DNA from: Balanoglossus misakiensis
Lineage: Eukaryota > Animalia > Hemichordata
Assembly (NCBI GenBank): GCA_040954595.2
Contig: CM082598.2
Span: 5,657,097-5,721,096 of the forward strand
Length of the DNA stretch: 64,000 bases
Direction: 5' to 3'
Each line of letters begins with the position of its first letter. Position 1 is the stretch's first letter. This document shows, in pieces, positions 9,893 through 54,445 of this stretch. The position numbers and the translations under genes were made by a program. The notes under the pieces were generated by a model that saw nothing but the letters and a program-made list of their open reading frames with translations, had not been told where the DNA came from and did no database searches.

Positions 9893-10118
9893 GGTTGTGA
9901 TCATATGCTAATCTGGAGGAGTTTTTGCTTCAGTAAACTCCGGCAAAGTTGTGGTGTTGTGAAGTTACCCTGGGATTTATTCACTTCTCAGTGATGCCAC
10001 TGTCTGATTCTGTATGTTTGAAAATCTGGCTGGTGAACCAGAACTTAAAGCTGTCCTGATCTGTTTAGTGTGTGAAGATCTGGAATGGAGTCTGGTTGTC
10101 TACAGGAAAGTTATAAAA
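9893..10118 (+). other. Putative 5'UTR exon of the ROCO genes (copies at 39103-39321 and 58697-58923)
   Basis: ttcacag acceptor and AAA/GTAAGT donor are conserved in all three units; frame-breaking indels between copies argue that it is non-coding. Confidence 0.45.
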
Positions 10119-11830: not shown

Positions 11831-12498
11831 TGAGAGTGAGAGAGAGAGAAACAGTATAAATTTCAACTTGTTAACATTCTTATACCGAGGAAGGAGTACA
11901 CGTCTACTTGAGAATTTGCATTGAGATTTTATTTTAAAATCTGGTTGTACTTATTAGTACCTGGTTTGATGGAGTAGAAAATTTTCACCAGAAAAGGACG
12001 TACAGTACGCTGGTAAAACAGTGATGGTGGAGTTGATAATGTTTATCAAGCAAACACAGTAACACTATAATGATTATTGTTTTTCTAGTTTATCATGGTA
12101 TTTTAGATGTCATTTTTTCAAATAAGATTTCTCTGTATTCACTTATTTTTTCATGCTACATTCCATTAATTTATTGTGTGTATCGTCAAAATTTTTAGGG
12201 CCGCGTGCAAAAAATTCCTCAGGCTGCAAAATTGGGTCTATTGGAACACTTTATGTGACATATCCCACCATGATTTTGATGAATAGCCGATCATATATTC
12301 TGACTTTCTTTGTAGTGTATAAGCAGTGTATTTACTTACAGTGTTTTTATGACTTTTTTACAGTCACTCAAGTCTCTCTTCAAAATCACATGATTATAGC
12401 CAGAAGACGCCGTCTCAGAACCAAGTAACAGTTGTTGGACTCGAGACCACCGCAAAAGTTGGTGGGTTTTAGAGCTTTTGGTGTGTTTCAGCTGCATG

Positions 12499-15400
12499 AT
12501 GGGCAATTTTTGTTGTAAGAAAACCAGGGCTTCCCAGAAATATGAAGAGCCACAGGTAAGTGCTTAGTGACCAGTTGAACTGAAGTTATGGGCATCTGCC
12601 TTAATTGCTGCTATTTGTCTGTCTGCAAGAGGAAAATGGTAAAGTGCACTAACAAGATTGCATGTCAGTATACTGAAATTATGCATGATTCCAGTGCATT
12701 GAAGCATTTGATGGACAAAATGCCGTCAAGTACATGTACCGTATGTCATATCAACACAGCTAAATTGTGACTGTGAAAGCTAATTGACAAATTGTCGATG
12801 CACTACAACACTTTTAATGCAGTGAAGTGCAGTTTTATAAATCCAACAGTCGCAAAACTTGCCATTTACATGGCAAAATGTTTGTGTTAATATTAACTAA
12901 ACTGTTTTGACATCTGTGAGTGAGTGAGAGTGTTAGAGGGTGATGGAGTCAGTTGTCGAGTTGATCACTGAAAATGTAATGCAAACGGTAATGTGTGGAA
13001 ACAAATGCACTTCATCAGATCGAGAAACGTAGTACATCACGGTAATTGTTCATCATGACCAATGATTTTATTGACCAGAATATGTGCTGGACACTTCACA
13101 TACTTCACAAAACCCAAACTTAAGGTGGCATTGCATGAAAACTTGTGATTTTTGCCAAATTTTACTTTTTTACATAAATCGGTAGGCCTAAGGGACCGTT
13201 CAGTTTTTACGGCAGGGGGGGGGGGCTGGCAAGTTTGTGTCATCGGTTCTCAAAATCAGGCCGACCCCCCCTTCACCCAGGACCAAAAAATGATGACCCC
13301 CCCTTTGACAGACCCAAAAATATGATGACCCCCCCCCCCCCCCCCCACGCCGAAAACATTCGCCGTCCTGATCCTATGTACACTGTATGCAATAAAGGGA
13401 ATGAGGCTCCTGACACCCCAATTATAAAATTCTTAAAGTATTATTGAAGTATATAATAGTACCGGTATATCGTTGCAATAAAGAAATTTATAATATACCT
13501 CATGCTAATACTGTGCCGTGATTCGCCAGAATCCGTCACGTGATAGGAAAATAGAATCGACTATGAACCGCTAGGGAATTAGCAGAAAAAATATAAACCG
13601 GTCACGTGACCAGCGTGAGTGCGCAGACTCGGTCACGTCAATCAGTGTCGCGTTGTCTGACACAATGGCCACCGCGGAAGATGTCGTCTGCCAACCTCAA
13701 GAGAAAATTGCAAGATTTTCCCAGCTGTTAGCATGAGGTTTATTATAAAACACCTATAGCCTGGCCTATATTCGGGCCATAGCAGCCGTTTTTACCCCCT
13801 CGTGACTGTGAGTTACCAGAATCATATGCTATTTCCCTCAGCCTGCGGCCTCGGGAAATAGCATATGATTCTGGTAACTCACAGCCCCTCGGGTGTAATA
13901 AACGGCCGCTATGGCCCTCATGGCCAGGCAATAGGTGTTCACTATGAACAAATTAAAATGACAAGTCAATACAATAGTTGATAGAATCGGTAAAACAAGA
14001 AAAGTGCCGGGGGTGGGTGTGGGAGGGGGTGTCCCCCTCCCACATAAGAAAATTTTGTAAAATACGGTGCTCAAAGTAGCAATTAAATGAACTCAAAAGC
14101 AAATTAACTCAATGTTAGGTAGGACAAATTTTAATTTTGCCACTCCACTAAGTAAGCATCGGGGGTGGGGTGGCAAGAAGTCTTCCCTGGTAAACTAGAC
14201 AAACCAGTGACGAAATGCAATGTGGCGAAGAATGGAGGGGGTGGAAGAAAATTTTGTAAAATATGTAGCGCAAAGTTACATTTTAATGAACTCAAAAGCA
14301 AATTATCTCAATGTTTGGGAGGACCAATTTTACTTTTTGCCACTCCACTCAAAGTTAGAAGATTTGGCGTCATCTTCGTCATGACATCATTTATAAAACT
14401 TCTCGTACATAGAAGATGCAGCGCGAAACTATCAGTTATGCAAAATGGTTTAAACAATTATTCTCCTTTATGCATTCACTTTGTTAAATATTATCATCGG
14501 TGGGGTAAGGGGTTAGGGTGGCAAGCACTCTGCCCCGGTACAAAAAATGAAATGTGGCGGAGAATGTAGGGGGTGGGTGTGGGAGGGGGTTAGAAAATTT
14601 TGTAAAATAAAGGGCGCGAAACTGCAATTTTGCGGACTCAAAAGCAAAAGTTCGGTGGCAAAAGTATGTGACCCCCCCCCTAAATGTGTAAAAAAAACAG
14701 ATGACCCCCCCCCCCCCCTTGTGGACTTCAAAATTTAAGTGACCCCCCCCCCTGGATTTTGCCGCCCCCCCCCTAAGGCCGTAAAAACTGAACGGTCCCT
14801 AATACTGACCCACACCCTGACTAATACGTCTTGGCGGAAATGGTGCATAATCACCCCAAAATAGCACTTTTCTGAATGAGTTCACAGCTTAACAAATAGG
14901 TGTCAACAATGCAAATAGCCGTTTTTCTCGGTTTGCATTTTCGCTGCTCATGACAACTTCGGACTAAAATAGCTTCGCCCTACGTTGGCCGAATTTGCTC
15001 AAATTTTGACAGGGAATTGTGTATGACCCATCCAACAAAACGCTAGTTTTGTTTGTCGATAAAGTGTCCCTGGCGGGAATAAACTCTGATTCAATACAAC
15101 TCACCGTGAATTTGATCAAATTTTACTAAAAATCTAACTTTCAAACGCTGTTACTCCTCAATGGAAGCAGATAACGCAAAACAAAATTACCGTTTTTTTG
15201 CATGTGTACTCTAGTTTCGAATGACATATTAAGATGCATGATGCATGGTCAACTTTTTTACCTAATTTAAATTTAATGACGTAATATCAAAAAAAAATTT
15301 TTTTCACCCAAAATCGCCACCATTTCCGGGGATCAATAATATTTGCAATTCAAACAAAAGTTCAAAAACTCAGCTTCCAGAATATATATGGTTTATGGGG

Positions 15401-18400
15401 GTTTTAACGTTGTCTTTGAAAAAGTCTCGACGGTTTCATGCAACGCCACCTTAATGGAATGTTGTTCAATGACATAAGGGACAGTTCAGTTTTTACGGCC
15501 GGGGGGGAGGGGGGGGCCGGCAAAATCCAGGGGGGGGGGTCACTCAAATTTTGAAGTCCAAAAGGGGGGGGGGGTCATCTGTTTTTTTTAAACGTTTAGG
15601 GGGGGGGGTCACATACTTTTGCCACCGAACTTTTGCTTTTGAGTCCACAAAATTGCAGTTTCGCGCCCTTTATTTTACAAAATTTTCTAATGTGGGAGGG
15701 GGACACACCCACCCCCTTCATTCTCCGCCACATTTCATTTTTTTGCTGGTTTGTCTAGTGTACCAGGGCAGAGTGCTTGCCACCCCAACCCCCACCGATG
15801 ATTATATTTAACAAAGAAAATACATAAAGGAGAATAATCGTTTAAACCATTTCGCATAACTGATAGATTCGCGCTGCATCTTTTATATACTAGAAGTTTT
15901 ATAAATGATGTCATGACCAAACATTGAGATAATTTGCTTTTGCGTTCATTAAAATGCAACTTTGCGCTACATATTTTACAAAATTTTCACCCCTCTATTC
16001 TTCGCCACATTACATTTATTCGCTGGTTTGTCTAGTGTACCAGGGCAGACTTCTTGCCACCCCACTCCCGATGCTTACTTTGAGTGGAGTGGCAAAATTA
16101 AAATCTGTCCTACCTAACATTGAGTTAATTTGCTTTTGAGTTCATTAAAATGCAACTTTGAGCACCGTATTTTCCAAAATTTTCTTATGTGCGAGGGGGA
16201 TACCCCCTCCCACACCCACCCCTGCCACTTTTCTTGTTTTACCAATTCTACTTTCTAGCAACTTTTGTATAGACTTGTCATTTTAATTTGTTCCTAGATT
16301 TCTTGATTGCAACGATATACTATATACTTCAATTACTATTAAGAAATTTATAATTGAGGTGTGAGGAGCCTCATTCCCTTTATTGCATACTGTGTACATA
16401 GGATCAGGACGGCGAATGTTTTCAGCAGGGGGGGGGGGGGTCATCATATTTTTGGGTCTGTCAAAGGGGGGGGGTCATCATTTTTTGGTGCTGGGTGAAG
16501 GGGGGGTCGGCCTGATTTTGAGAACCGATGACACAAACTTGCCCGAGACGCGCAGTACATTGTGCAGCGCAGGTATTGTCCGAGACGCGCAGCGTCGAGG
16601 ACAATACCGGAGCGTACGATGTACGAGGACATAAATCCCGGTATTTTGTGAATAACCTTATTATTATACACCTTTTCCGGACGTCCTTGATGAACGATAA
16701 AGAATAAATAGGCCGCTATCGGACTTTCTAGTTTTCAGACGCCCCCATGATGTAATTTGCATATCGAACGCGCCTTCACCTCGCGCATCAGGTGATGCTA
16801 GTGTCGAGCTGCCGATGTCTCGCGCGCGACGTTCTACGCTGCAGCGATGAACGCGCTCGCCTGTTCGTTCACACATTCCTTCGACTGAAATTTCATCGAG
16901 GATTTTGACTTATTTCGCATTTTGGGCCACCAATAATTTTGTTTAATAACGACTGTGTACTTTTTATATAATTTTTTGTGAGAGTAGGGTGCAATATCAT
17001 CATTGTTTACATCAGACAGCTGTGAGGTCAAAGGTCAAATATGCGTCCAATAACCCTGTGGGTTATGGGACTCCGCGTCCTCATTTGAATAATTATTGGA
17101 CGGTGATACCGCGAATTATTGTATTACAGAACTCCATACGTTACAGCAGTAGGTGTATAATAATATTAGTTATAGTGAGGTTATTTGTGATTCCATTGCA
17201 CTATTTTTAATCAAAATACTTTTGGTGTGTTTTGGGGATATTTCAGGTACACCCAACAGACAGTGAATCTAATGAGGGAACAGCGGCTTCACAGGAATAT
17301 AAAGAACCAGAGGTTAGTGACCGTTGAACTGAAGTTATGGGCAGCTAGGTTGTGCTAGAGGAAATATTGTCTGTCTGATTGAGAGGAAAACTTTAAATTG
17401 TAACACTAAAGTATGTGTTTCAGAATAATTAATGTCTTTCAGTATGCTGAGATTATTTATCATTCTATTGCATTCTGTTTGTGAAGAGTCATCATGGCCT
17501 TACTTTACCCATTGTATGATGTCAACTTTTTTATCCACGGTGATATCACAGTTTAATTTTTTTGATTCACTTATTCATCAATGAAGATCTTAATGTTTTC
17601 CTATATAATAACTGCTGTTTATGATTTCATATTGAGAATATTTGATAAAACAAGTGTTGCCTGTTGATTGTTACAGGTTCTCATCAATGCTGCAGGGGAT
17701 GGTGACATTGCAAAGATCCAGTCGCTAATAGCTCGTGGATATGATGTCAATGCAAGGGGGAAATTATCCCTGGACGACCTGTTTGCCGTAAGTGTTTATA
17801 TTTGCCTTTTGTACCACAATAACATAAATAAATGGTGTCTTGTATCAAACATAATTAATGGAAAAAGGGCGGCGAGGGAGAGACTTTGTCCCTTTAACTG
17901 CATATCTATGACTGCACCTCACTGTAATGAATTCCTAGAGGTTTATAGTTAAATGTCAAGTGCTTGACTCATATGCAAATTTTTAGTATCAGATTTGTGA
18001 TGTCATTTTTAGGTCCCATTGGTATAGGCATATATACCATGGGACCTTATGGGATCGGTTGCGTCTGTATGTATGTATGGATGGATGTATGGATGTATGT
18101 CTGTATGTCCGTCCACATCAAAAACTTGAAAACCGCTGCGCGTATCACCTCAATATTTGGTGTGTAGGTGCAGGCAGGGCTGTAGATGGGAGTTTGTCCA
18201 AACGAAGTTGCCAGGCCCAAAAATATGCAAATTAGCTGGAAAAATGTGAAATTTATCAAAACTCTGAAAGTCAACAACTACTCGTCAGATTGCTTTAAAA
18301 ATTGGTATGCATGTACCATATGTCAACCTCACATCGACCTGTAAGTGTTAAGTTAATATCATCGATGTTTTATTTTTTATGATTTTTTTAGTCTTTTTAT

Positions 18401-21400
18401 TAAATTTATACCTTTACTTATACCTCTATGGTTAAGCTATGTCCACATCTTATTGTGGAATTCTGGTCTGTGCAATAGTCCTGTACAGTGACTGTCTATT
18501 GGTCAGTGAGCACAATGGGGCCAAAATAAAGGCAAAATTTTGGGCTCACCTGTAACACCTGCTTAACACATTAATTATGTGCATACCCAATTCCGGGCTA
18601 ACTAATAGGGCTAGAGGTTTCGTTCTTGTGGGACATGGACCAGTATAGGGTCAAAATTTCTTGCCCAAATTTTGGGTGACCTCAGGTGACCTTTGACCTA
18701 CTTTCCTATATCTGGGCATCCAGAGCAGGTACAGACTTGGCGTTTGGAGGGTTGGGACTAAAATTGAAAAGCCAAAATATTGGTCACCTGTGACACCTGC
18801 ATATCTCATTTATTATGTGCATACCTAATTCCAGGCTAACCAATAGGGCTATAGGTTTGGTTTTTCTTGAACCTGGACCAGTATAGGGTCAACATTTCTT
18901 GCCCAAGTTTTGCATGACCTCAGGTGACCTTTGACCTACTTTATCATATCTTGGCATCCAGAGCAGGTACAGACTTTGCGTTTGGAGGGTTGGGACTAAA
19001 ATTGAAAAGCCAAAATTGGGGGTCACCTGTGACACCTGCATATCTCATTAATTATGTGCATACCTAATTCCAGGCTAACCAATAGGACTATAGGTTTGTT
19101 TTTTGTTGAACATGGACCAGTATAGGGTCAACATTTCTTGCCCAAATTTTGCATAACCTCAGGTGACCTTTGACCTACTTTTCCATATCTTGGCATCCAG
19201 AGCAGATATGCTTATTGCTATGTTGCTATGTGCTATGTTGGCTTGGGCCCGATATTGCTGCTTGCAGATCTGCTTGCAATGTCACCTGTAATTTTTATTC
19301 TGGTGTGTCACTGTTTTTGCATAATCCTCAAATGGGACCACAGTGTCCTTGACGTTATTTTTATTCTTCGTTCCAGGATTTCACAGCATTGCATGCAGCG
19401 TCCTTGATAGGTGGATTGGATACTATGAGTGTGTTGATTTCCCATGGTTCAGATGTCAATGCTAGGACTGAGGTACATGAACTAACAAGTTATTACTTCA
19501 TTATGGACAAAAAAATGACTTCATGTGTATTTATGTCTTTATGACCACAGTGATCTCTGGATAATTCTTTTATTGACATCATATGAACATTACAAAACAT
19601 TAATTTTGTTTTTTAGCTGAATAATCACTTTTGTTGGAATACCTTCATTGTGTCTAACTTCTACAGGTTAATGATAATCAACATTTATTTGTTTGTTTAA
19701 GGAAATTTCACCTTATATTTCAATTTTTGTGACATTGTTCTCATGCTCCTCCTTCATTACTTACAGAATGGAGACACACCTTTGCACTATGCAGCACAGT
19801 ATGGTGATGAAGGCCGTGTCAGATTGTTATTGGAACACAAAGCTGATGCTAACATACAAAACAAGGTAGATACCAACCTGATTTCTACAGGTTTATTCTA
19901 ATCTGATCGACATACAAATATTTGTTTGTGTGTTTGTTTGTTTGTTTGTTTTGTTTAAAGGAAACCTCACGTTACATTTGAATGTTTGTGACATTGTTCT
20001 CATGCTCCTCCTTCATTACTTACAGGGTGGAGACACACCTTTGCACGATGCAGCACAGTATGGTGATGAAGGCCGTGTCAGATTGTTATTGGAACACAAA
20101 GCTGATGCTAACATTCAAAACAAGGTAAATACCAACCTGACTTCTACAGGTTTATTCTAATCTGATCGACATACAAACATTTGTTTGTGTCTTTGTTTGT
20201 TTGTTTTGTTTAAAGGAAACCTCACGTTACATTTGAATGTTTGTGACATTGTTCTCATGCTCCTCCTTCATTACTTACAGAATGGAGACACACCTTTGCA
20301 CTATGCAGCACAGTATGGTGATGAAGGCCGTGTCAGATTGTTATTGGAACACAAAGCTGATGCTAACATTCAAAACAAGGTAAATACCAACCTGACTTCT
20401 ACAGGTTTATTCTAATCTGATCGACATACAAACATTTGTTTGTGTCTTTGTTTGTTTGTTTTGTTTAAGGAAATTTCACCTTATATTTCAATTTTTGTGA
20501 CATTGTTCTCATGCTCCTCCTTCATTACTTACAGAATGGAGACACACCTTTGCACTATGCAGCACAGTATGGTGATGAAGGCCGTGTCAGATTGTTATTG
20601 GAACACAAAGCTGATGCTAACATACAAAACAAGGTAAATACCAACCTGACTTCTACAGGTTTATTCTAATCTGATCGACATACAAACATTTGTTTGTGTC
20701 TTTGTTTGTTTGTTTTGTTTAAAGGAAACCTCACGTTACATTTGAATGTTTGTGACATTGTTCTCATGCTCCTCCTTCATTACTTACAGGGTGGAGACAC
20801 ACCTTTGCACGATGCAGCACAGTATGGTGATGAAGGCCGTGTCAGATTGTTATTGGAACACAAAGCTGATGCTAACATACAAAACAAGGTAAATACCAAC
20901 CTGACTTCTACAGGTTTATTCTAATCTGATCGACATACAAACATTTGTTTGTGTGTTTGTTTGTTTGTTTTGTTTAAAGGAAACCTCACGTTACATTTGA
21001 ATTTTTGTGACATTGTTCTCATGCTCCTCCTTTCATTACTTACAGGATGGAAACACACCTTTGCACTGTGTAGCAGGGTCTGGTGATGAAGGCCGTGTCA
21101 GATTGTTATTGAAACACAAAGCTGATGCTAACATTCAAAACACGGTAAATACCAACCTGACTTCTACAGGTTTATTCTAATCAACATACAAACATTTGTT
21201 TGTTTTTTTGGTTATTTGTATGTTTAAGGAGACCTCACATTACATTTCAATTTTTGTGACATTGTTCTCATGCTCCTCCTTCATTACTTACAGAATGGAA
21301 ACACACCTTTGCACTTTGCAGCAAGGGATGGTGATGAAGGCCGTGTCAGATTGTTATTGGAACACAAAGCTGATGCTAACATACAAAACAAGGTAAATAC

Positions 21401-24400
21401 CAACCTGACTTCTACAGGTTTATTCTAATCAACATACAAACATTTGTTTGTTTTTTTGGTTATTTGTATGTTTAAGGAGACCTCACAGTACATTTCAATT
21501 GTTGTGACATTGTTCTCATGCTCCTCCTTCATTACTTACAGGGTGGAGACACACCTTTGCACTATGCAGCATGGTTTGGTGATGAAGGCCGTGTCAGATT
21601 GTTATTGAAACACAAAGCTGATGCTAACATACAAAACAAGGTAAATACCAACCTGACATCTACAGGTTTATTCTAATCAACATACAAAACTTGTTTGTTT
21701 GTTTTGTTTACTTATTTAAGGAGACCTCACCTTGCATTTCAATTGTTGTGACATTGTTCTCATGCTCCTCCTTCATTACTTACAGAATGGAGACACCCCT
21801 TTGCATTATGCAGCAAAGGATGATGAGGAAGGCCGTGTCAGATTGTTATTGGAACACAAAGCTGATGTGACTATACAAAACAAGGTAAATACCTATACAG
21901 CCACAAATAATTGTCTGTTTGTTTGTTTATTTTTATCTCTTTATTATTTTAACATAGCGAAACTCTTCCTGAAATTGATGCTAATATACTGTAGAAATTG
22001 TTATTGGAACTCAAATCAAACTATTGATGTACCGGTATTTATAGTCAGTTTCATTCTACATTTCATGTTTGTTTTGAAGACATGTAGGGATCGTTATTGT
22101 AAAGAAGATATGGTGACAGTTTTAGATTACTCTTTCAGTTCATCTTTCAACAAACTGAAACTTATAAAGCCTATTTAGAGGAGATACCAACCACTATGGT
22201 TTCCTCATTTTGGAGTTTTGTTTTGCGTCCTTTGCAACCACTACCACCACCATTGTAGGTTGGTACTGCAGGTATGTTTTGCGGCACTGTTTATACGCAC
22301 CTATAGTCCCGATCTTGCTGTATCTCCTACATGAAGTACTTCCTTTTGTTGTTTTGCACAGGATGGCGACACAGCACTCCACATGGCAGCAATGAGCGCC
22401 ACTAGGTGGGATTATGGAAAAGTTGTGAAACTGTTGTTGCAATATGGAGCTGATCTTGACTGCAAAAATAAGGTACAATCTTCTTTTGCTTATTTCAATA
22501 TTTTATTCCATTAAACTGACACCATACGTTCGGATTAAGGTGGCATTGCATGAAAACTTGTGATTTTTGCCAAATTTTACTTTTTTACATAAATCGGTAG
22601 GCCTAATACTGACCCACATCCTGACTAATACGTCTTGGCGGAAATGGTGCATAATCACCCCAAAATAGCACTTTTCTGAATGAGTTCACAGCTTAACAAA
22701 TAGGTGTCAACAATGCAAATAGCCGTTTTTCTCGGTTTGCATTTTCGCTGCTCATGACAACTTCGGACTAAAATAGCTTCGCCCTACGTTGGCCGAATTT
22801 GCTCAAATTTTGACAGGGAATTGTGTATGACCCATCCAACAAAACGCTAGTTTTGTTTGTCGATAAAGTGGCGCTGGCGGGAATAAACTCTGATTCAATA
22901 CAACTCACCGTGAATTTGATCAAATTTTACTAAAAATCTAACTTTCAAACGCTGTTACTCCTCAATGGAAGCAGATAACGCAAAACAAAATTACCGTTTT
23001 TTTGCATGTGTACTCTAGTTTCGAATGACATATTAAGATGCATGATGCATGGTCAACTTTTTTACCTAATTTAAATTTAATGACATAATATCAAAAAAAA
23101 AATTTTTTCACCCAAAACCGCCACCATTTCCGGGGATCAATAATATTTGCAACTCAAACAAATGTTCAAAAACTCAGCTTCCAGAATATATATGGTTTAT
23201 GGGGGTTTTAACATTGTCTTTGATGAGAAATAGGCCTCTGAAAAAGTCTCGACGGTTTCATGCAATGCCACCTTAACTCCCATTTTTAAAGTTGAATCTT
23301 CACAACCATTGAATTTGAAATTCAATTTGTATGACTGTACAATTTTATCAGAATGTTTCAACAAAACACTCATAAAACAGTATGAAGTTGATGCAATTAT
23401 AATGTTCAGCAAATAGTACTTTCCCAATCCATTGTTTTTGTTGTTGATAAATTGGACTTTGGGCATTGGACTCTCTCACAGTCCCCCTCGCCGCCTATGC
23501 ATATACTTATGGTCTGGTTGCATGTGTGTCGCTACACCATGGTTCTTCTCCTTTGCTAAACGGTTGAGGGCGCGTTAGTGTACAACTACAACATGGAAAG
23601 AACCTAGTAGCAAACCGTGGGCTGTGAGAGAGTCAATACGATATTACGGTATATACAAATATTCTCGGGCATAGCATTTTGAGAGATGTAGGGTCATGTT
23701 CCTAAGAATCCTTTGACTCGACATGACGATGCCAATCCTAACACTGACTTTCTTATGGTTTTTGATCGGCTTTCTGAAATTTTTAGTTATGATGAATTAC
23801 AATGATACCCTTTATCTTACTTTTGATCTCTCATAATATACACGAATGTTCATTTCTCTTGTAGTTGTCTACATACTAGAAATGTGATGGAATCATTGAC
23901 AATTATGAAAGTTTCAATGTCACAGAAGCTGTCGGCTAATCTATTAAATGATTTCTGTTTTAAAGTATTATCTTATCAATATCAACATCTTATAAACTGA
24001 TAGTTACTTCTTTTATCCCAATAAAACTTAGACCGGAAAGACACCACTAGATGTCACTGGAAGTTACAGCTCAGCTGTTAAGGATGTGTTGTTGGATTAC
24101 ATTAGGGTGAGTGTAATTCTTCAAATTTGAGTAATACATAACCTGACGTGCAAATTCTTAATATGTATCCTGAATTAAGAGTGTCCGTAAATATCAATGT
24201 TAGTAATAATTTACTACTTAATTCATGTATTTTCATGATTTCTTTTATTCAACATACAAGAAACGAGATGAGTTCAATGACCTGATGAAGGAATCAGGTG
24301 TGGAATGCGACACTTTTAAGTTGTTCTTCGCTGGAGATGGTGGAGTTGGTAAGACTACACTGTTGAAGTCACTTCAGAGGGTATGTTTGTATTTATTTTT

Positions 24401-27400
24401 TGTGTAACAGTTCTAGTATGCCATAACATCATAATACATTCACATTGTATGTATAGTGCATATTAGGAAACTACTGGCAGAATGCCACAGGTAACTTTGG
24501 ATAATTAAAACATACGCATTGTTGATGAAATTTTGTGTACTAGGTATACAGTGAAATTGTTTTTCTTTCTTTTTTCCTTATCAAAGACTCAAGAAATAAC
24601 CCTGGGATCTGAAGAAAGTGAACATATTCCCACACCTGGTATTGATGTCCAAAGTGTTCATATTCCTGATGTAGGAAATGTCAGTGTTTGGGATTTTGCC
24701 GGCCAGGCTGAGTATTACGTCACTCATAACATGTTTCTGGGAGCACCCAATGCTGTCTCCATATTGGTGTTCAAAGCTACAGACGAGAATGGTCAACTCA
24801 ACACCTTTGAAGGTGTGTTCCCACAGGTAAGAATCTTCACAATAAATTAACTAAACATGCTTGAGACTGGAAATCCAATGAATGTATTTCATCATTTTCC
24901 ATATCAAAGACAGAAGAAACTGACCATTCCCGAAATATCACACTTTCCTTGAATTATAATCTCATATTCATGATCCCTTTAAATTTGCCTCAAAATAAAT
25001 ATAATATTTGTATAATTTATACAAATATTCTCATTTGTAGATTTTGTTTTGGTTGCGGTTTCTGAAAGGAACAACCCACATGGATAGGTATTCATTCGAT
25101 GAGCCCGGTGAAGGATACAAGAAACCAGTGGTGATATTGGTTGCAAGTCGAGCTGATCAGTTGAAGAGAATCGATATGGCTCTAGGTTGGTGTTGTCAGC
25201 TCAATCACATGCATATACTGTACAATTTCAAGCTTATTATTTAACATGTACTGGTAGGTAACATGTGTTGATTAGGGAGAAGAACATGTATAGTTTTTGG
25301 ACATGTCAAAGTTTGAAAAATAACAGCTATTATAATGTCCATTTTAAGCACTAGCTAGCTGTCATTAAGGAAAAGATTCACAGCTGAACTTTATGCCTTT
25401 GACTACTTTTCTACTTTTTTGTAATTTCACAGCTCGTCATATGCTAGACGAAGTTCTGACAAGAGCACAGGAAATGTTTCAAGATTATTTGGACATACCA
25501 AGCACCATATTTCTGGTGAATTGCCGTGATTCTACAGACGGAAACATGAAGAAATTCCGCTCCTGTTTACATCAGAAAAAGGTAACAATTGTTTGCTGTA
25601 TTCAATATTGCCTCTGAATTGTTCTACCTTTCTAAACACACAAACACACTATTCACTTCAGTTACCGTACAATTACAAGATTCAGTTTCATACCTTCACC
25701 TTGAAAAAAATGCAAAGACTCAAAGTGTTGGCAACATATTACCAATGTCTGTTTGATGACTCTTGCTTAAGCACCACTTGCAAATGATTAGGTTACATAT
25801 TTATCCAATTTTAGGAGCCACCAAAATGTGAACTGTTTCAAAATGTAACATAACATAGTCACATTTAACAAATATGTGATTACCTCCTTGTGTTTAATTC
25901 ATCACTTGTGAGACTAGCTTGACAAGTTATGCTGTTATTTAATTTTTCTTGTTGTAATTTTTAGACAGTAAAAACACTTCCAAGCGTGTGTGCCAAGATA
26001 ATGGAAAAGAAGAGGGAATTATATGATGACTTCCCAGCTCTTTATTGGATAGAATATGTGGCAAGAATCAAAGAAATATACCCCACGATTGACGAAAGTT
26101 TCTTACAAAAAGCCACCAACTATCTGCATAACATCGGCCAGGTCAGTAACAAGAAACAACATGTTGCTCATCCATTCTCTTTCAGTGCAGATACTAGGCA
26201 GAGTGAATGTGATATTTCCATCAGTTACAAACTATTTTTCTCTTCAAAAATCTGCAAAGGCAAATTTTATAATGTATTATTGTCTCACTGTATGATTGTA
26301 ATTGTTTGTGGTTTTGGATCCCCAATATTTCTTTAATCATAATAATATCACAAAATTACCAAAGATTATGTTAAGGTGACTTTAAGATTAAACTATTCAA
26401 CTTGGCTACCTGTAAATTGGCTTGTTGTGAGATTTTGAGGATGAACTAAACACATATGCATGTCAAAAATTTGTCCGATGATAATTGTTTAAACAATAAT
26501 GTATGCCCCAATATGCAATAATTGACAAAAGCACATATTATGGAGTAAATGCAATGATTTCTTTTGGCTAGGGTTGATATATCAATGAGCAGGATCATTA
26601 TGGTATTGGCATCAAATGGTTTAGATAATTCATTATCAGTGGCATACTGTAGTCCCCACTGAAGCAATAGAAATGAAATTATTGAAGTTCTAAATACAGT
26701 TGTTGTGTAATTCAGTATTTAAGGATTGTGCCTTGCATACATTCATGTATCAAAATATTTCTTTTCTTGTGTTCAGCTTTTGTATGTGAAGAAGTCATCT
26801 TCGGAAAGAGAAGATGTCGTGGTATTGGATCCAAACTGGTTGTGTTACAGGATATTTGGACCAATGTTGGCCACCCCTTTATTTGCACAGTTCTGTTCCA
26901 GATTCAAGAGAGATTGCTTTCAGACGATGGATCAGATAGAAGATGTACTTGGTGACCGTGTAAACAGCAAACTTCTGATTGACCTTCTGGAAGATTTTGA
27001 GCTTCTCTGTCATGCACATGGCCTCACAAAGACTGGAGAGAAACTTTTCGTCATACCAGGGCTTCAAGACGATGATATGCCTGAAGGTCATTGGGAGAAG
27101 AGCGAGGTGAAGACAATTTACCTTGGAAGACGATTCGAATGCCACGATAAAACAGATTCCTTTACGGCAGGCTTTTTCCCAAGATTACAGACCCGTCTAT
27201 ATAAGCGTTTCACCAACCTTGGCCATCCACCCAGTGGCTTATGGAGAAATGGTATCAAAGTGTGTCATGAAGTTGAAGGTCTTGTCTTTATGACCAATGG
27301 CAGAAGGGCAGTCAATGTCTGCGTACGAGTTAAAGACAAGAAGTCGATAGGTGAGGGCTACAAACTTCTTGAGATGGTTTCCAAAGAAGTACATGATGTC

Positions 27401-28261
27401 TTCTCGATCGCCTGTCCAGGCAACAGGATGAATCAGCTTATCCTGAGTGCAGATTCTCTTGCAAACCACAGCAATGTAGAAAAAATACCATTTTACACTC
27501 TTGATGACGTGCTACGTGCAGAAGACATGGGAAAGAAAGTGTACAACAAAGAAGTCGGTGAAGCAGAAGATGTTTGTGACCTCCTTTGTCAAGGTCATGA
27601 CACAACAATCTTACGACATAAATGGAAAAGATGTGATATCAAATGGATGCTAGAAGAAACCAGAAGAAACCTGACAAGGAGAATGCAGTCTCATCGTGAT
27701 CCTTCTCTGAGCTATGGCAGCATGGCAGATTTCATGGGCATTAAGCTCCAGGATATCAAGGGATTTGAATCAATGGCGGGTCAGGCAGACAGACCAGTTA
27801 CAGAGTATCTCTTTGAAGAGTGGTGTCGTATATGCGCAGAAAAGAAACGACTTCAACGGGAAAAAGACACCACAGAACTCCAGACCACTTCTCATGACAC
27901 ACATGATGTTGATAGTGGTTTGGCAACGATGTCACCGTCATCACAACAACCAGACTCAAGCGTCCAATTCCGACGAGGAAAAGACACCACTACAGCTGCA
28001 GGTGCCAGAGCCATCTCACCTGACATAGAGACCTCCGAAGGTCGTTCAGCAAAAATGTCACACTCATCAACATCATCCCCCCAACAAGATTCTGATGAAG
28101 AAGTGAATGCTCAGAAAACAAGACGGAAGTATCCACATTTAAAGGGACCTGTCTTCGAAAGCAACTTCGAGAATCTGCTGGCAATATTCAGCACCATGGG
28201 AAGAGAGGACATGATCGGATTGATTGAAGAGATGTTCGAGAAATTGGAAGAACGCAGATAG
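12499..28261 (+). CDS. Ankyrin-Roc-COR-death domain ROCO protein, DAPK1-like without kinase, copy 1 (spliced, ~1240 aa if all exons are used)
   Basis: GT-AG exons in continuous frame: 12499-12555 (MGNFCCKK..), 17247-17312, 17677-17787, 19377-19472, nine ANK exons 19767-21884, 22362-22472, 24032-24106, 24261-24380 (P-loop GDGGVGKT), 24587-24826 (PTPGID, WDFAGQ), 25041-25185 (VILVASRAD), 25433-25581, 25965-26141, 26777-28261 (COR motifs VVLDPNWLC and GFFPRLQ, then a death-domain-like tail). The paralogs have the same exon structure. Confidence 0.85.
13124..15450. mobile_element. ~735-bp TTAA-flanked element (Kolobok-like) interrupted by a nested insertion
   Basis: TIR GGTGGCATTGCATGAAA; uninterrupted copies at 22539-23272 and 59919-60652. 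Confidence 0.85.
13192..14799. mobile_element. PIF/Harbinger-type non-autonomous element carrying two further MITEs (~13489-13747, ~13749-13940)
   Basis: TIR GGGACCGTTCAGTTTTTACGGC, TAA TSD. The host site ggcctaatactg is intact in the other copies of the host element. Confidence 0.85.
15478..16542. mobile_element. Inverted, one-end-truncated copy of the same Harbinger-type element
   Basis: Reverse-complement match to 13227-14799 without the nested MITEs; the second TIR is missing. Confidence 0.75.
18011..19356. mobile_element. Helentron/DINE-1-like non-autonomous element in a ROCO intron
   Basis: Absent from the same intron in copies 2 and 3. Inserted in a T-run, subterminal IR GGTCCCATT/AATGGGACC, 5' (GTAT/GGAT)n tract, three ~240-bp internal tandem repeats. 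Confidence 0.6.
19740..21890 (+). repeat. Tandem array of nine ~250-bp exon+intron units, each with one 33-aa ankyrin exon
   Basis: Exon starts 19767, 20026, 20281, 20535, 20790, 21046, 21294, 21542, 21786. Shared acceptor cattacttacag; donor gtaaatacc (gtagatacc in unit 1); variable (TTTG)n tract in the introns. Confidence 0.95.
22539..23272. mobile_element. TTAA-flanked ~735-bp element (Kolobok-like)
   Basis: TIRs GGTGGCATTGCATGAAA, TTAA on both sides, single TTAA at the empty site ~48278. Confidence 0.85.
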
Positions 28262-29005
28262 ACTGTCAAAAGAAGAGCAGATAAATTCTGAAAACCAGAA
28301 TTTGATTCCTTCAAATCCCACCCAGTAAACTAAAAACATGTGTGTTCAATGGCTATAGAAATGTCAGGGGTAACTGAAACATGAATCTGATATGGAAATA
28401 TTATAGCCATGCACCCCTATGCGACAGTTCAGACCAGATTTCTGATAGTGCAGACACTTAAATGGTAGGAAATGGTAAACTAATTTGACTAAAAATGCAA
28501 AATAGCATTTTGGACAGCGGTACAATCAGAGGAAAAAATATGTAGGACAAGCAATCATTCATTAGGTCAATGTGTATAACTTTATTGACATCAAAACCAT
28601 GTCAAACAAGTCTGAAGAGATCAAAATGTATACTTGATGCTCTCAGGGTGAATGGAAATCTTGGGAGTCATCTATTCTGCTAAGGTCAGTGTAATGTACA
28701 AGTAAATATTGCAAATGTGTCTCTATTTCTATAGTAAATGTTTTGTGGCAGTATTTACACATTACCCTTTTCAATGTACATGTACGCTCAAGTCAACTTG
28801 TCATTTTTCACAAATGTCATATTTTTTCCTAAAATTTTGAACAAGATCTTAAGATAATGGAAAATTGTGTCCTCTTGGTCTAGAATTAAAGGAAAAAATA
28901 ACGGAAAATGTGTCAAAATGATGAAAATTTTACACCACATTTTGACAGGAAAAATGTGTCATTCAAAGGGTTAACAGCTTTGGATTTGAGTAAAGCTATA
29001 GATGG

Positions 29006-31230
29006 CTAGCTACTTTCAGTCTTTTTTCTTGTGGTGCTTTGTACAGAACTTGGAAGCTGTTTCGCTGGGGTTGCTGTGTTGACATTGTCTTTTTGGTGGA
29101 TTTTGGTGTGACGGTTCAAGTTGCTGGAATCACTGAAAGTTTTTCCACAGTAATGACACTGGTAAGGTCTTTCCTTGGAGTGAGTTCTCCGATGGGTGAT
29201 TAGGCGATTGTTACAAGTGAATCTTTTACCGCACTCTTTGCATGCATAGGGTTTTGTGTTTGTGTGAATCCAGCTATGCTTTTGAAGAGACTGAGGTCTA
29301 GCGAATGCCTTGTCGCAGTCTGTGCAATTGTAGGGTTTGGTGTTTGAGTGCGTCACGCGGTGCTGCTGCAGGATCTGACTGGTGACGTAGCGCTTGCCGC
29401 AGTCGCTGCATTTGTGCGGTCGCTGGCCGGTGTGCTGCAGTAGGTGCACTTTCAGGGAAGACATTCGGTTGAACGCTTTTCCGCAGGCTTCGCACGGGAA
29501 CGGACGTTCCTTTGAGTGCGTCCCGTAGTGCTGTTGCAGGGTGTTCTTCTTGCGGAACGTTTTACCGCATTCTTCGCAGGCGTACGGCCGTTCTGTCGTG
29601 TGCGTTGCAGCATGCCGCTGCAGCTTGCCTTTTGTGTAGAACCTCTTGCCGCAGTCTTTGCACTCGTGTGCTCTCTTGCCGGTGTGGAAGCTCTGGTGTC
29701 CCTTGAGCGTGTAGCTATGTCGGAACCTCTTGCCGCAGTCTTTGCATTCGTGTGCTCTCTTGCTGGTGTGGAAGCTCTGGTGTCCCTTGAGCGTGTAGCT
29801 ATGTCGGAACCGCTTGCCGCAGTCTTTACACTCGTGTGCTCTCTTGCCGGTGTGGAAGCTCTGGTGTCCCTTGAGCGTGTAGCTATGTCGGAACCGCTTA
29901 CCGCAGTCTTTGCATTCGTGTGCTCTCTTGCTGGTGTGGAAGCTCTGGTGTCCCTTGAGCGTGTAGCTATGTCGGAACCGCTTACCGCAGTCTTTACACT
30001 CGTGTGCTCTCTTGCCGGTGTGGAAGCTCTGGTGTCCCTTGAGCGTGTAGCTGTGTCGGAACCGCTTACCGCAGTCTTTACACTCGTGTGCTCTCTTGCC
30101 GGTGTGGAAGCTCTGGTGTCCCTTGAGCGTGTAGCTATGTCGGAACCGCTTACCGCAGTCTTTACACTCGTGTGCTCTCTTGCCTGTGTGGAAGCTCTGG
30201 TGTCCCTTGAGCGTGTAGCTATGTCGGAACCGCTTACCGCAGTCTTTACACTCGTGTGCTCTCTTGCCGGTGTGGAAGCTCTGGTGTCCCTTGAGCGTGT
30301 AGCTATGTCAGAACCGCTTACCGCAGTACGTGCATTGGAACCGTTTCTCGTTTGAGTGAACCGACAGATGCGACTTGAGTCCCTGTTTTGTGAAGAAGGC
30401 GTTACCGCACTCCTCACATTGATGTCGTCTCTCTCTGTTGATCGAGTGAATCTCCTGGTGAGCCTTGAGTGTGTAATGCCTCGTGAATGTTTTACCGCAC
30501 ACTTTGCATTGATTCCTGTCTCTGTCGACGAGAACATTGTCAGTCTCGAGTTGTGGGATTGAATCGCCTGTATCCTTGGAAACGTGACCATGCAGAGCAA
30601 GACAATGGACGATGAGATGAATATCTGTTGAAACAACAAAAAGTATTGGTCGTTAGAAAACAAATGGAAATACTGGGACTGTAAATATACTTGTAACAAT
30701 GTTTAACCCTCTCACCACCATGGTTAGGTCCAAACCCGGTGATTTCTAAGGTAAGGATAGACCTCTGCACAAGGAAATGGGGGTGATAGGGCAACTTCTT
30801 ACAGGCTGTGTGGAATTTACATATGCAGCTATCTGTCTGTCATGGAGAGTTTAGGAAAGTCTTGTATTGACTGACATGGTACATACCATTTTGTGACAGA
30901 TTTTCTTGTTGAAATCTCTGTTTGAATTCCTGAGTACACCTTTCAATGACTTCACCAAACACAGTCAGATGATCATACACATTTTCAAATGTCTTCTCGT
31001 GTTCTGGAATTAGAAATAATATATAATGTTAAAACTGAGAACATGTATATTCATACTTGACACCATTTTAGGTGAGCTAGCTCTCAACTTTCCACAGTAA
31101 CTTTTGCTTATTTTGCAGAGGAGTGGCATTGCTTACCCACATTGTTGCCAGGGGCAACGAGCGAGGTGACGCTGACGTCACACGAATTTGCAGCACTACT
31201 CAAAGCAATCGGGAAAGGTTCGGAATTCAT
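29006..31230 (-). pseudogene. C2H2 zinc-finger paralog (~17 fingers, 8 repeat fingers) with an in-frame nonsense codon
   Basis: Same exon model (31230-31137, 31003-30887, 30624-29006). CGA>TGA at 30310-30308 in the third finger; the equivalent codon is Arg in the other repeats. Confidence 0.7.
29660..30340 (-). repeat. 84-bp zinc-finger minisatellite, 8 units
   Basis: 84-bp period from 29721 to 30309. Confidence 0.95.
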
Positions 31231-31384
31231 CCTGACAATTTCCAAACGGATAAACACCGTCTTCTTCACCGTAATATAGACACTGGGCAACACTGGTATT
31301 CGACTGGGACACTGGTGACTGCTGTCCTGTCAATCGAGGTCAGATTCAGATTCGAGCTCGTGCTCTACTCTTCTGCTCATTAGA

Positions 31385-36523: not shown

Positions 36524-39392
36524 TTAGGCCTACGTCTTGGCAATTTATTGGTAGGCCTACATGTTTTGATTCTAGAACAGTTCACCATTATATACGCATT
36601 GAAGTTGTGCACTCTAAGTCATCCTGGAACAATAAAATTGAATTTTGTCTGGTACAAAAGAGTGTTGTTGTATTGTTGAATGGTGTATGATGTCATAACA
36701 ATAAATCACCAAGATATTAGGTCACTCAGAGGTCACTGTACAGGTATACCGCAGAAAATGACCGCAGACATTACTGACTTCACCGCTGGCGGCGCCCTAA
36801 AACATCCATTTCAAGCGATTTTGTGCTATTTTCGTTTCGCCACATTAGAACTTCTTCCATTTTCTTCACAACTATGATCAACGAAAAACTAACGAGATTG
36901 AACTGTAAGAGCAAATATGGTGCCCTCTATTATTTTCTCATATGACCACAGAAGAATGCACGTGAGCTATCAATGTCGTCCGATGCCACTTTGTAGTTCC
37001 TATCCATGTACTACAAATCGCGCCATTGGCTAACATTCGCGCGTGTTGATCAAGAAATGTTTATTATCCAATCAACGCTTGTGTTACATAACACTTCCGG
37101 ATTAGCAGTGTGGGATGGATTTTGGAAGGATAGAAATCAGCCAGGATGTGTCTATCCTACATTTTCGTAGTTTTTGATAAAAAAAATCAGCACAATACAC
37201 CCGCGCGCTGGATATCACTTAACACCAGGAATTATTTGTGTGCCTTTATTGACATTTTTGGGACTTGGACTTGTGACACGCCACACCACACATGGATTTG
37301 TTGGATGGAGAAGATTCGCTGGATTTCTACAACTAAAAGAACCTAGAACAGAAAGCAGGTAAGATTCTCTGGACTGGTTGGGACAACTGGCCTTTTACCT
37401 GCGCTGTAATTGCACGTGCGCCCACCAAAACTTTCTAAAACTTGGAAGTTAATGTAGACATGGACGTAAAAAGAGTCCATGATGTAGACTAAGATTCTGA
37501 CGTGAAACTGTCGTCGGTTGCTCAACTAATATTGGCGGAATCTTGCAAAATGTAAGTCAAACGACTCTTCTGTACATTTTTGTCTCATCGCTCACGTGAC
37601 CACCACAACACATCTAGAAAACTGAGCTTGCAATCGACTTAAAAAGGAAATACAAAATCCCTGTAAGGTGTAATTATAGTGTGTTGTCTAATGTACTAGA
37701 ATGTTGTTCAAATAAAACTGAAGACGCGTTGCGTTCACTGTTAAAACTGACAGAGAAACGTGCGTCTGTTTGTCGCAAAAGTTTACTCAAAATTTGCATG
37801 AAATATACAAACAAGAAAACAAACCTGCGTAGTGGGCGCGGGCCTAGCCTAGCAACGCGTTATCAAACGGCGATTTCGCTGCATTAAAATATCAAAACTT
37901 ACCGAAATGTAGCGGAAAGGGCTTGATATATATGTATTCTAAGATACGGTGCGTGAAAATTTAAAGTTTCGAAAGGCAAACTTCGCGTAACGGCAAGTTT
38001 TCGGTGGCAAATGATTGTACTGGTCAATTTCCTAAACGGTGAAGTCAATCTCAAAGTCAACGAATGTGTAGTGACGGTTTTTTCGCATTGGACGTATGAA
38101 CCCGGAGTGACGATTTCAATCCACCGGATGCGTGAAAGTGTTTTTTTACGAGAACAGCTGTTGTTTCCATCTAACCTTCTTTCCACTTGATTAATGATTT
38201 TAAGAGAGGATGAGGGCGATCTTTGTACTTATAATATAAGATGCTTTCATTATAAATTGTATGCTTGGATCAACAGTAAATGTTATCAGGGTTACCTAGA
38301 CATTTTGCCAGATTTCTCCTTGATATAGCAATGCATTTCTAATAGATGTATAGCAGAAATTAATGTTCCTAAATTATTGTGTTCCCAAACTAAGCAAAAA
38401 CATTGAAATTATATTTCAGAGGCCGGCAACTGCATGGTAAACTGTAGTGATATTAATAAATCCTTTAACAAATGAAAGAGACATGCAGCAACGATTGCAA
38501 GCAACAAGACATGCTCTCTCAAGACAAGACTGGCACACTTTCCCTAAAAGGTAAAAACGAACTTTTTTTGTTATCCTTTGATCTCACTACCACAAGATTA
38601 CATTAAGGGAATTCAAAACATACTTTTGAATACATAGTTTTTATATTAAGATTTATCATAAGGTTTAAGTGAATGACATTGTTTTGGATGTCTATGTGCG
38701 CCTGTATTCATGTCCCCTCCCCCCCCCCCCCGCCCAATATATTTGAACAAAGTGGCCACATGAGGGCAGTATTCACTCCAAGATTTACTGTACACTGTTT
38801 TCTTTGACCAACAGTAACTGTCAGTTGTTCACCATACTTCTGTAAATCCACACTGTTAAATCATTCATATGAATAAAGAATAATGCATGAATTTTGCCAG
38901 AGAAGAATATTGTGATACACAGTCACTATGAGTCATTTTAGGCCACACTGACAATTGAACAACTGTGGAAATTAATTGCTCTACCAAACACAGTTATCGC
39001 AAGCCATTTTCGATGATTCTAGGCCACATTGGCAAGCTACCAGTAATGACTATTAAAATTATTTTCAACTGTGATTTCAATACATATTTCTTTTGTTCAC
39101 AGGGTTGAGATGCTATCTGGAGCAGTTTTTGCTTCAGTAAACTCCGGCAAAGTTGTGGTGTTGTGAAGTTACCCTGGGATTTAAACCACTTCTCAGTGAT
39201 GCCACTGTCTGATTCTGCATGTTTTGAAAATCTGGCTGAACCAGAACTTAAAGCTGTCCTGATCTGTTTAGTGTGTGAAGATCTGGAATGGAGTCTGGTT
39301 GTCTGCAGGACATATATGAAAGTAAGTCAAGTCTCTTTGAGTTTAATTTGTATCTACACACACACACGCACACCCACATGTATGCACGCACG

Positions 39393-54200: not shown

Positions 54201-54445
54201 TCTCACCTGACATAGAGACCTCCGAAGGTCGTTCAGCAAAAATGTCACACTCATCAACATTGTCACCCCAACAAGATTCTGATGAAGTGGAGGCTCAGAA
54301 AACAAGACGGAAGTATCCACATTTAAAGGGACCTGTCTTCGAAAGCAACTTTGAGAATCTGTTGGCAATATTCAGCACCATGGGAAGAGACGATATGGTC
54401 GGATTGATTGAAGAGATGTTCGAGACATTGGAAGAACGCAGATAG
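42269..54445 (+). CDS. Ankyrin-Roc-COR-death domain ROCO protein, copy 2 (spliced, ~1510 aa if all exons are used)
   Basis: Exons 42269-42325; five 66-nt exons starting at 43296, 43555, 43730, 43905, 44164; 44897-45010; 45310-45405; eight ANK exons 45701-47562; 48105-48215; 48454-48522; 48663-48782 (GDGGVGKT); 50653-50892 (WDFAGQ); 51113-51257; 51502-51650; 51951-52136; 52334-54445. No internal stop seen. Confidence 0.85.
42818..43131. mobile_element. ~310-bp interspersed element with an internal ~140-bp hairpin
   Basis: Absent at the equivalent site in copy 1 (~13028); near-identical inverted copy at 44336-44650. Confidence 0.8.
43270..44235 (+). repeat. Five tandem 66-nt phase-0 exons encoding an acidic 22-aa linker (VHPTDSESDEGTTALQEYKDPQ-like)
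   Basis: Acceptor atatttcag and donor gtaagtgac/gttagtgac in each unit; two intron length variants. Confidence 0.85.
44336..44650. mobile_element. Inverted second copy of the ~310-bp hairpin element
   Basis: Reverse complement of 42818-43131; absent from copies 1 and 3 (tgtgtttcagaataat). Confidence 0.8.
45670..47570 (+). repeat. Tandem array of eight ankyrin exon+intron units
   Basis: Exon starts 45701, 45949, 46200, 46463, 46708, 46953, 47216, 47464. Three exons are 102 nt, the rest 99 nt. Confidence 0.95.
48913..50568. mobile_element. Unclassified TIR element (CAGGGTTC termini, 5-bp TTAAA duplication) in a Roc intron
   Basis: Empty site ataattaaaacat at ~24502; subterminal CCTGGAAA repeats at both ends. 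Confidence 0.8.
49241..49997. mobile_element. Nested Mutator-like MITE with ~150-bp TIRs and 10-bp TSD
   Basis: TAGTCTCGGTTACCCAGACG...CGTCTGGGTAACCGAGACTA, AGGTCATGCC on both sides. Confidence 0.9.
53441..54188 (+). repeat. Coding minisatellite, 6 x 126 bp (42 aa, Ser/Thr-rich), in the last ROCO exon
   Basis: Units start at 53441, 53567, 53693, 53819, 53945, 54071. Copy 1 has a single unit (~27883-28000). Confidence 0.95.

Follow-up and report, generated by a model that had tools for sequence, protein, structure and literature searches.

Tandem kinase-less ankyrin-Roc-COR genes with a selected ankyrin binding face and a predicted death domain in Balanoglossus misakiensis

A 64-kb stretch of the genome of the acorn worm Balanoglossus misakiensis (contig CM082598.2, positions 5,657,097 to 5,721,096; hereafter the window, with positions counted from its first letter) carries three tandem copies of a ROCO gene in which ankyrin repeats, a Roc GTPase, a COR domain and a putative death domain follow one another with no kinase in front of them. 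What is such a gene for, and is it a death-associated protein kinase at all? A first-pass annotation, made from the sequence alone, read it as a kinase-less, DAPK-like ROCO with a sensor-switch-effector layout analogous to that of an NLR. Here we report positive selection on five codons of the ankyrin binding face, a pattern of variable ends around a conserved Roc-COR core and a phylogenetic position that appears to lie beside DAPK1. We think it probable, though well short of certain, that the gene is a membrane-tethered innate-immune sensor in which the ankyrin array is followed by a Roc-COR GTPase acting as the switch and then by a predicted death domain.

The ankyrin array and selection on its binding face

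Copy 1 runs on the forward strand, as do all of the ROCO features described here, from an ATG at 12499 to a stop at 28259-28261. Its gene model has 21 exons, all of the introns are GT-AG (19 of the 20 in phase 0) and the single stop-free frame of 1240 aa opens with a short N-terminus that starts MGNFCCKK, continues through a 22-aa acidic spacer, two ankyrins of unique sequence, an array of nine that are nearly identical and a final ankyrin with its cap, and ends with Roc, COR and a helical tail. Copy 2 (42269-54445) has an intact 1509-aa frame with five spacer exons, eight array exons and six 42-aa repeats in its death-domain insert, and of copy 3 (60953-64000) the window holds the 5' part only, its end falling within the ankyrin array. 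Because an opposite-strand C2H2 zinc-finger gene comes after each complete copy, the duplicated unit is the ROCO gene together with the zinc-finger gene.

The two unique N-terminal ankyrin exons (17677-17787 and 19377-19472) are followed by nine 99-nt phase-0 array exons at 19767-21884, each encoding one ankyrin repeat within an exon-plus-intron unit of about 250 bp, and then by the last ankyrin exon (22362-22472) and a capping exon (24032-24106). Array exons number nine in copy 1, eight in copy 2 and at least four in copy 3 where the window ends, and all 21 of them are 99 or 102 nt long, in phase 0 and one to a repeat. The repeats of copy 1 have a mean amino acid identity of 85% and its first five units resemble a recent block duplication, while across the genes the first and last units cluster by position and the middle units mix. 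Ankyrin repeats have been gained and lost between the copies, and the variable array claimed in the first-pass annotation is borne out.

The variation within these repeats is concentrated at a few positions. When each repeat is numbered with G at 2, TPLH at 4-7 and G at 13 (PMC9611651), variation peaks at codons 1, 3, 8, 11 and 12, where nonsynonymous differences per site (pN) reach 0.27-0.43 against a synonymous value (pS) of 0.08 and a value of 0.086 for the upstream intron. The 21 exons encode 18 distinct proteins and 17 distinct patterns at these five sites. Codon models M1a and M2a were compared using our own implementation on the 21 paralogous array exons of this one genome, giving twice the log-likelihood difference (2dlnL) as 29.6 and 24.0 on two trees, with an omega of 5.6-5.9 for about 17% of codons and posteriors above 0.96 for positive selection under M2a at the same five codons. 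In null simulations a 2dlnL of 24 was reached by 0 of 26 replicates with three unrelated conversion tracts and by 0 of 14 without, the maximum being 9.3. The concave, partner-binding positions published for ankyrin repeats are 1, 2, 3, 7, 8, 11, 12, 32 and 33 (PMC8781854), and all five selected codons fall within these nine (chance 5e-4). A set of DARPin positions gave the same outcome as the published set, which is the one used here. A tree-free minimum count finds 26 amino acid changes over 21.7 sites in the concave set versus 15 over 55.2 sites elsewhere, and comparison of the concave set with silent changes gives a binomial p of 0.014. We conclude that five binding-face codons of the array are under positive selection. 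Since binding-face codons change faster than silent sites, a fast-evolving immune sensor is likely, and the selection supports a sensor role more strongly than the first-pass annotation could.

Could the same diversity arise by neutral churn, in an unstable segmental duplication whose tandem units all expand and whose relaxed surface codons diversify without any selected function? Within the same unit the zinc fingers number 17 versus 31, the stalk exons 1, 5 and 2 and the 42-aa insert repeats 1 versus 6, and human ankyrins likewise tolerate variation at positions 3 and 12 (PMC8781854). Relaxation however yields an omega of up to 1 where about 6 is observed, the frames of the two complete copies have stayed open and their comparison gives a pN/pS of about 0.2 across the main COR block, and we regard an origin of the diversity by churn as improbable.

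The Roc-COR core and its variable ends

Roc is encoded by four exons at 24261-25581 (24261-24380, 24587-24826, 25041-25185 and 25433-25581) and the COR domain (25965-27658) by an exon at 25965-26141 and the first part of the last exon, which begins at 26777. The P-loop GDGGVGKT, switch I TPGID, switch II WDFAGQ and G4 ASRAD are all found, and the gene has both features of ROCO membership, a Roc domain with G1-G3 motifs and a COR domain directly after it. Scanned as single exons, Roc passes the Pfam cut-off of 27 bits (28.5 bits, E 2e-06) and COR-B is likewise above its cut-off (29.1 bits, E 1e-06), while COR-A falls below (E 0.074). A phmmer search of the last exon against the PDB gave no match, and a predicted structure of the same exon (mean predicted local distance difference test score (pLDDT) 80.8) matches the Roc-COR and COR structures of C. 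tepidum with Foldseek E values of 2e-09 to 7e-09. The Roc and COR domains of the first-pass annotation are confirmed by these motifs, profiles and structural matches. Its further emphasis on an atypical G4 is not sustained, as the same pattern occurs in 8 of 19 relatives; the G4-G5 motifs of Roc are known to vary (PMC6337361), and we dropped the G4 as a distinguishing trait, it being ordinary in the lineage.

Between copies 1 and 2 the core is nearly unchanged. Roc as far as G4 differs at 6 of 168 residues and the main COR block at 8 of 294, with a pN of 0.013-0.015 over most of Roc-COR (about 97% identity), as against 6 of 50 residues in the G5 exon, 12 of 59 in the first COR exon, 16 of 60 in the last ankyrin and cap (pN 0.146) and 32 of 62 in death helices 1-4 (pN 0.30). 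The ROCO copies are variable ends around a conserved Roc-COR core.

The last exon is also contained in five sequencing runs, none of them recorded as RNA. The region 23900-28400 is covered by 655 contigs in run X1 and 507 in run X2, which fall in every identity band, as many diverged copies of the family would lead one to expect, and these figures are not a copy number. In run X3, which derives from the same sample, a contig joins 26134 to 26775 with five letters between them, which is the predicted COR exon junction 26141/26777 in variant sequence; at 24030 the sequence of a loose end is similar to that at the end of the ankyrin exon before it (the 22362-22472 / 24032-24106 junction). Our reading of X3, judged from these joints and not from its uncovered intron bins, is that it probably contains spliced transcripts of the family, without implying those of copy 1 itself. 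A possible 24-nt in-frame microexon also lies between the P-loop and switch I exons (24467-24490; 48869-48892 in copy 2). If it were included, the spacing would come close to that of the P. flava relative P0158, and an X1/X2 contig joint omits the microexon region in some DNA copies.

Beyond COR the last exon encodes the putative death domain (27659-28261), with helices 1-4 at about 27659-27844, a Ser/Thr-rich disordered insert at about 27845-28147, helices 5-6 at about 28148-28258 and then the stop. The model of the tail has confident helices on either side of the disordered stretch, with a pLDDT of about 90 outside the insert. When this model was compared with 48,161 chains the top 13 were all death domains (aligned residues about 17-226, VIA), the best being those of MyD88 (Z 11.0, root-mean-square deviation (rmsd) 2.6, 98 aligned), IRAK2 (Z 10.9, rmsd 1.9, 93 aligned) and Pelle/Tube (Z 10.7), and nearly every entry of the list is a death fold. 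A profile built from the tail alignment gave weak matches only (MyD88, E 0.025), and all four of the short insert-free relatives pass Pfam Death and align colinearly with the window tail. Helices 4 and 5 lie 112 aa apart in copy 1, where the 42-aa Ser/Thr-rich unit occurs once, and 320 aa apart in copy 2, where it occurs six times. The tail is therefore predicted, from these models, to be a six-helix death domain split by a disordered insert; the death-domain-like tail of the first-pass annotation stands as a predicted fold, interrupted by the insert. The divergence of helices 1-4 could reflect a tract converted from a distant paralogue, selection or the two together.

Variation at both ends of a homogenised core might also be expected of a guard, decoy or self/non-self gene, with the ends serving as baits or compatibility determinants that diversify under pathogen attack or to avoid cross-activation between paralogues or alleles, as at fungal het loci. 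Fungal NLRs with such repeats include allorecognition genes (PMC13449251). The difference in helices 1-4 between neighbouring copies points the same way, and loose contig ends at 27614-27792 add further variants of the death-helix region. An effector that signals through conserved adaptors could however diverge by conversion too and enteropneusts are solitary, and we hold a guard or compatibility gene to be unlikely.

For an immune sensor at the membrane the N-terminus offers a candidate anchor. The start exon (12492-12555) contains two successive ATGs of which the second (12499) is in the better Kozak context, and the double ATG, the better context of the second and the GNFCCKK that follows are found in all three copies. 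GNFCCKK matches in every copy the PROSITE myristoylation pattern and its two cysteines could be palmitoylated; MGNFCCKK is thus predicted from its sequence to be a myristoylation and palmitoylation membrane anchor. As no close relative shown starts with MGxxCC, the anchor is either lineage-specific or the models of the relatives are incomplete. The acidic spacer exon (17247-17312; 66 nt, phase 0), present in 1, 5 and 2 copies in genes 1, 2 and 3, presumably forms a stalk of variable length. The start and spacer exons share their acceptor context, 3' end and downstream intron sequence, and the stalk exons therefore seem to be derived from the same unit as the start exon.

Absence of a kinase and relation to DAPK1

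Whether kinase exons lie further upstream, so that what is seen is only the 3' portion of a DAPK1-type kinase gene, can be judged from the DNA in front of each copy. A tblastn search of the 64-kb window with the DAPK1 kinase domain returned just two matches, both at E 7.8, and four kinase-motif patterns had no match in any of the six frames. For copies 2 and 3 the entire stretch back to the preceding zinc-finger gene lies within the window and contains no kinase. The promoter region of copy 1 probably lies beyond the window and the start exon has a splice acceptor, so that it is not the first exon of the gene, both of which would suit a hidden kinase. Upstream of it however lies a conserved AG..GT segment at 9893-10118 (homologues at 39103-39321 and 58697-58923), probably used as a 5' untranslated exon. 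Its length of 226, 219 and 227 nt in copies 1, 2 and 3 is unequal modulo 3 and the frame that would join the ATG has five to six stops per copy, and on this evidence we take it to be non-coding. The tblastn search, the motif patterns and this frame-broken exon agree with the first-pass annotation, which had seen no kinase exon.

Among 40 scanned relatives, picked from 150 listed matches and two further lists by preference for top rank and length, an N-terminal kinase is present in one, a nematode DAPK1. Many database models that resemble DAPK1 orthologues (in echinoderms, ticks and spiders; P0269, P0274, P0280, P0230 and others) have none either, being truncated models or natural kinase-less forms. 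A hidden kinase would be in keeping with such DAPK1-orthologue models, and database architecture alone is therefore weak evidence. The gene is however separated from DAPK1 by a fully supported split in the tree described below. Were the tandem copies instead an assembly artefact, they would not be expected to differ in exon number, in insertions and by up to 30% locally, as the three do. A kinase further upstream or an artefact of assembly is, in our view, highly improbable.

The nearest proteins come from Ptychodera, Glandiceps and Saccoglossus and bear the automatic database name 'death-associated protein kinase 1-like'. Named matches form six clusters in P. flava, six in S. kowalevskii and two in G. 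talaboti, and the closest P. flava protein among the matches listed has 53% identity over the last exon. A Roc-COR tree of 33 rows was built under LG+F+G4 with ultrafast bootstrap (UFBoot), unrooted and with no LRRK or MFHAS1 outgroup; it leaves out 19 of 52 rows as long-branched or redundant, and two of the 54 rows chosen had been dropped earlier as they had no recognisable P-loop. Eleven DAPK1 rows, from nematodes, arthropods, molluscs, echinoderms, amphioxus and vertebrates, lie on one side of a branch with UFBoot 100. The window copies fall among nine hemichordate rows (UFBoot 100), which adjoin five rows, four of them named echinoderm (union UFBoot 94), and then five rows of which four are named amphioxus. 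A quick tree of all 52 rows agrees on the main groups. As the tree is unrooted, it describes a lineage beside DAPK1 and does not demonstrate a DAPK1 that lost its kinase as against a kinase gained in DAPK1. Judged by this tree, the window gene belongs to a kinase-less lineage shared with echinoderms and amphioxus and is not a DAPK1 orthologue, which makes the earlier label 'DAPK-like' misleading. The tandemly expanded family that was proposed together with that label is upheld: it is multicopy and fast-changing, with lineage-specific expansions among the relatives, and alongside this the DNA holds no upstream kinase exons and a death fold is predicted.

In amphioxus and echinoderm members the same ankyrin (ANK)-Roc-COR core bears a Death, CARD, caspase or GT4 tail. 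In the relatives P0021, P0024, P0019, P0074 and P0112 this core is followed by a GT4 conflict glycosyltransferase, CARD with caspase, death with caspase or chitobiase/Fn3-like tails. No vertebrate member was found among the named matches, most of the 150 listed matches being without a name. Our literature search, with subscription papers outside its scope, found neither an account of an ANK-Roc-COR lineage in animals nor one of an animal ROCO whose ankyrin cassettes are under selection, and PMC2575513 and PMC11175523 contain no passage that bears on the subject. The 2008 amphioxus immune-repertoire survey and Marin's ROCO phylogenies may mention the family.

The nearest characterised relative is DAPK1, at 26% identity over 936 aa (nematode DAPK1), and this proximity would be in keeping with a non-immune scaffold, a membrane-anchored ANK-Roc-COR-death-domain adaptor for the cytoskeleton, trafficking or developmental cell death that possibly modulates DAPK1 through Roc-COR contacts. 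Roles in the cytoskeleton and in vesicle traffic are among those described for Roco proteins (PMC4104024). If the scaffold had a fixed partner in the host, however, selection on the binding face, turnover of repeats, lineage expansions and changing effector tails would not be expected, and we find this role quite unlikely.

Proposed mechanism, parallels and neighbouring genes

How might an immune sensor of this kind work? The predicted lipid anchor and the variable stalk would hold the ankyrin array at the membrane, where a ligand, presumably foreign or pathogen-modified, would bind its concave face. Binding would shift the nucleotide state and the monomer/dimer state of Roc-COR, as in other Roco proteins; the C. 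tepidum Roco is described as a monomer with GTP and a dimer when empty (PMC6337361). The shift would free or cluster the death domain so that death-domain partners are recruited, leading to cell death or NF-kB signalling, and the 250-bp units would be the main source of new specificities, through unequal crossing-over and conversion between them. That a ligand controls Roc-COR dimerisation and death-domain signalling, as the first-pass annotation had proposed, is in this way suggested by analogy.

A number of observations count against an immune sensor. For every member seen, the ligand, partner, localisation and signalling role are proposals from sequence and models. The selection test uses 21 paralogous repeats of one genome and our own code, in the tree-free test no single codon passes the Bonferroni bound (best 0.002 x 33) and pN/pS for the array overall is 1.15. 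Units have also come and gone in the zinc-finger array, among the stalk exons and in the death-domain insert, which makes unstable repeats a general property of the locus. For the tail, Pfam Death misses the window protein, Foldseek gave no match under E 3 (the four at E 3-9 are all death folds or death-domain entries), the death-fold Z of 11 is under the tool's caution level of about 13 for helical bundles and in death helices 1-4 pS equals pN at 0.30. The acylation motif is absent from the relatives examined, with an MG start in 8 of 151 proteins of which none is a close hemichordate relative, and use of the upstream ATG would block acylation. Lastly X3 is listed as 'DNA?' and its contigs may derive from other paralogues or a retrocopy.

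Known systems provide several points of comparison for the sensor that we favour. The analogy to NLRs drawn by the first-pass annotation stands as regards a diversifying repeat sensor with a selected binding face. It fails for the layout itself, as NLR and STAND proteins have a NACHT or NB-ARC ATPase with the effector N-terminal and the sensor C-terminal, whereas the window gene has a Roc G-domain and the reversed order. By this comparison it is not an NLR but appears to evolve like one.

Zambounis et al. in 2012 reportedly treated brown-algal leucine-rich-repeat (LRR)-ROCOs as candidate immune receptors. These algal genes have one exon per repeat, exon shuffling, clusters and a few selected concave codons (Teng et al. 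2024, PMC11378527), and the window gene resembles them in having Roc-COR behind a one-exon-per-repeat array with selected concave-face codons. They differ in that the algal LRR exons are 72-nt and phase 2, with no death domain and with alternative splicing shown, whereas the animal gene has 99-nt phase-0 ankyrin exons and a predicted lipid anchor. Fungal NLRs with ankyrin repeats of high internal conservation (HIC) show near-identical repeats, variation in number and selection at five positions of the inner helix and hairpin (Dyrka et al. 2014, PMC4986451; see also Ament-Velasquez and Saupe 2026, PMC13449251). Near-identical repeats of variable number, exchange of repeats between genes and a death-related effector are common to both, but the fungal proteins have a STAND ATPase in the order effector-NTPase-sensor and the window gene has Roc-COR in the order sensor-switch-effector. 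The bacterial AP-GTPase counter-invader systems consist of LRR, Roc-COR and a variable effector (GT4, caspase, TIR), their function being predicted (Kaur et al. 2021, PMC8195603). They share with the window gene a repeat sensor, Roc-COR and an exchangeable C-terminal effector, and GT4 and caspase tails recur in its amphioxus and sea-star relatives, although these systems are prokaryotic and have an LRR sensor.

Among animal proteins DAPK1 likewise has ankyrins before Roc and a death domain after COR, and the window gene differs from it in having no kinase or calmodulin segment, in its separate branch, in being multicopy and fast-evolving and in the death domain split by an insert. Trichoplax has an expansion of kinase-less ROCOs with CARD, death and TPR domains (Civiero et al. 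2014, PMC4104024), which is similar as an animal Roc-COR expansion with death-fold domains, while the ankyrin cassette array and selection analysis of the window gene set it apart from the Trichoplax ROCOs as described there. ROCOs with TIR or death domains are also in print for Aplysia. The 'DAPK1-like' proteins of Ptychodera, Saccoglossus, Glandiceps, Branchiostoma and echinoderms share the lineage and the ANK-Roc-COR core but have shorter death-domain inserts and no MGxxCC start was seen in them. The concept of a ROCO immune receptor is already in print for algal and bacterial ROCOs.

A wider proposal, which we put forward tentatively and consider doubtful as a whole, is that invertebrate deuterostomes would have in these genes a third class of intracellular innate receptor, one that stands alongside NLRs and is switched by Roc-COR. 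Such a class would hold a natural DARPin-like library of phase-0 ankyrin cassettes, shuffled in the germline and skipped by splicing so that each animal has many binding surfaces, in membrane-anchored, dual-acylated proteins with exchangeable death-fold tails; the deuterostome ancestor would already have had it, as a lineage sister to DAPK1, and the name 'DAPK1-like' would conceal it. The locus suggests that hemichordates, echinoderms and amphioxus have a receptor family that has expanded repeatedly and been overlooked, its members wrongly bearing the name of a kinase; brown algae, fungi and deuterostome animals would have converged on near-identical repeats with a few hypervariable binding-face codons. 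What determines the switch state of Roc-COR is an open question for LRRK2 and DAPK1, and a ROCO that has no kinase, a modular sensor open to exchange and the death domain as its one output would be a minimal system for the coupling of ligand, switch and output.

The zinc-finger gene co-duplicated with the ROCO gene lies on the reverse strand at 29009-30652, with its second copy at 55188-57998, and 17 and 31 fingers were counted in the two. Seven of the 17 and 21 of the 31 are near-identical; the zinc-finger array therefore also expands quickly, with its fingers staying uniform. Between the zinc-finger gene and the next ROCO copy is a conserved stretch with a CRE-like TGACGTCA element (about 31170-31260 and 58510-58610), possibly a shared bidirectional promoter, and unit 3 is without the approximately 7.8 kb that follow this stretch in unit 2. 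An element of about 620 bp with 94-98% identity, probably a young transposon, is found at 14798-15419, 22602-23223 and 59983-60603, its sites differing in copies 1 and 3. In copy 2 a 321-bp element occurs twice around the five spacer exons, in inverted orientation and with 99% identity (42818-43138 and 44330-44650). Introns are enlarged in one copy only at 13178-16950 and 48900-50570, by nested repeats, both inverted and direct, and by a 1.7-kb insertion, all likely to be mobile elements.

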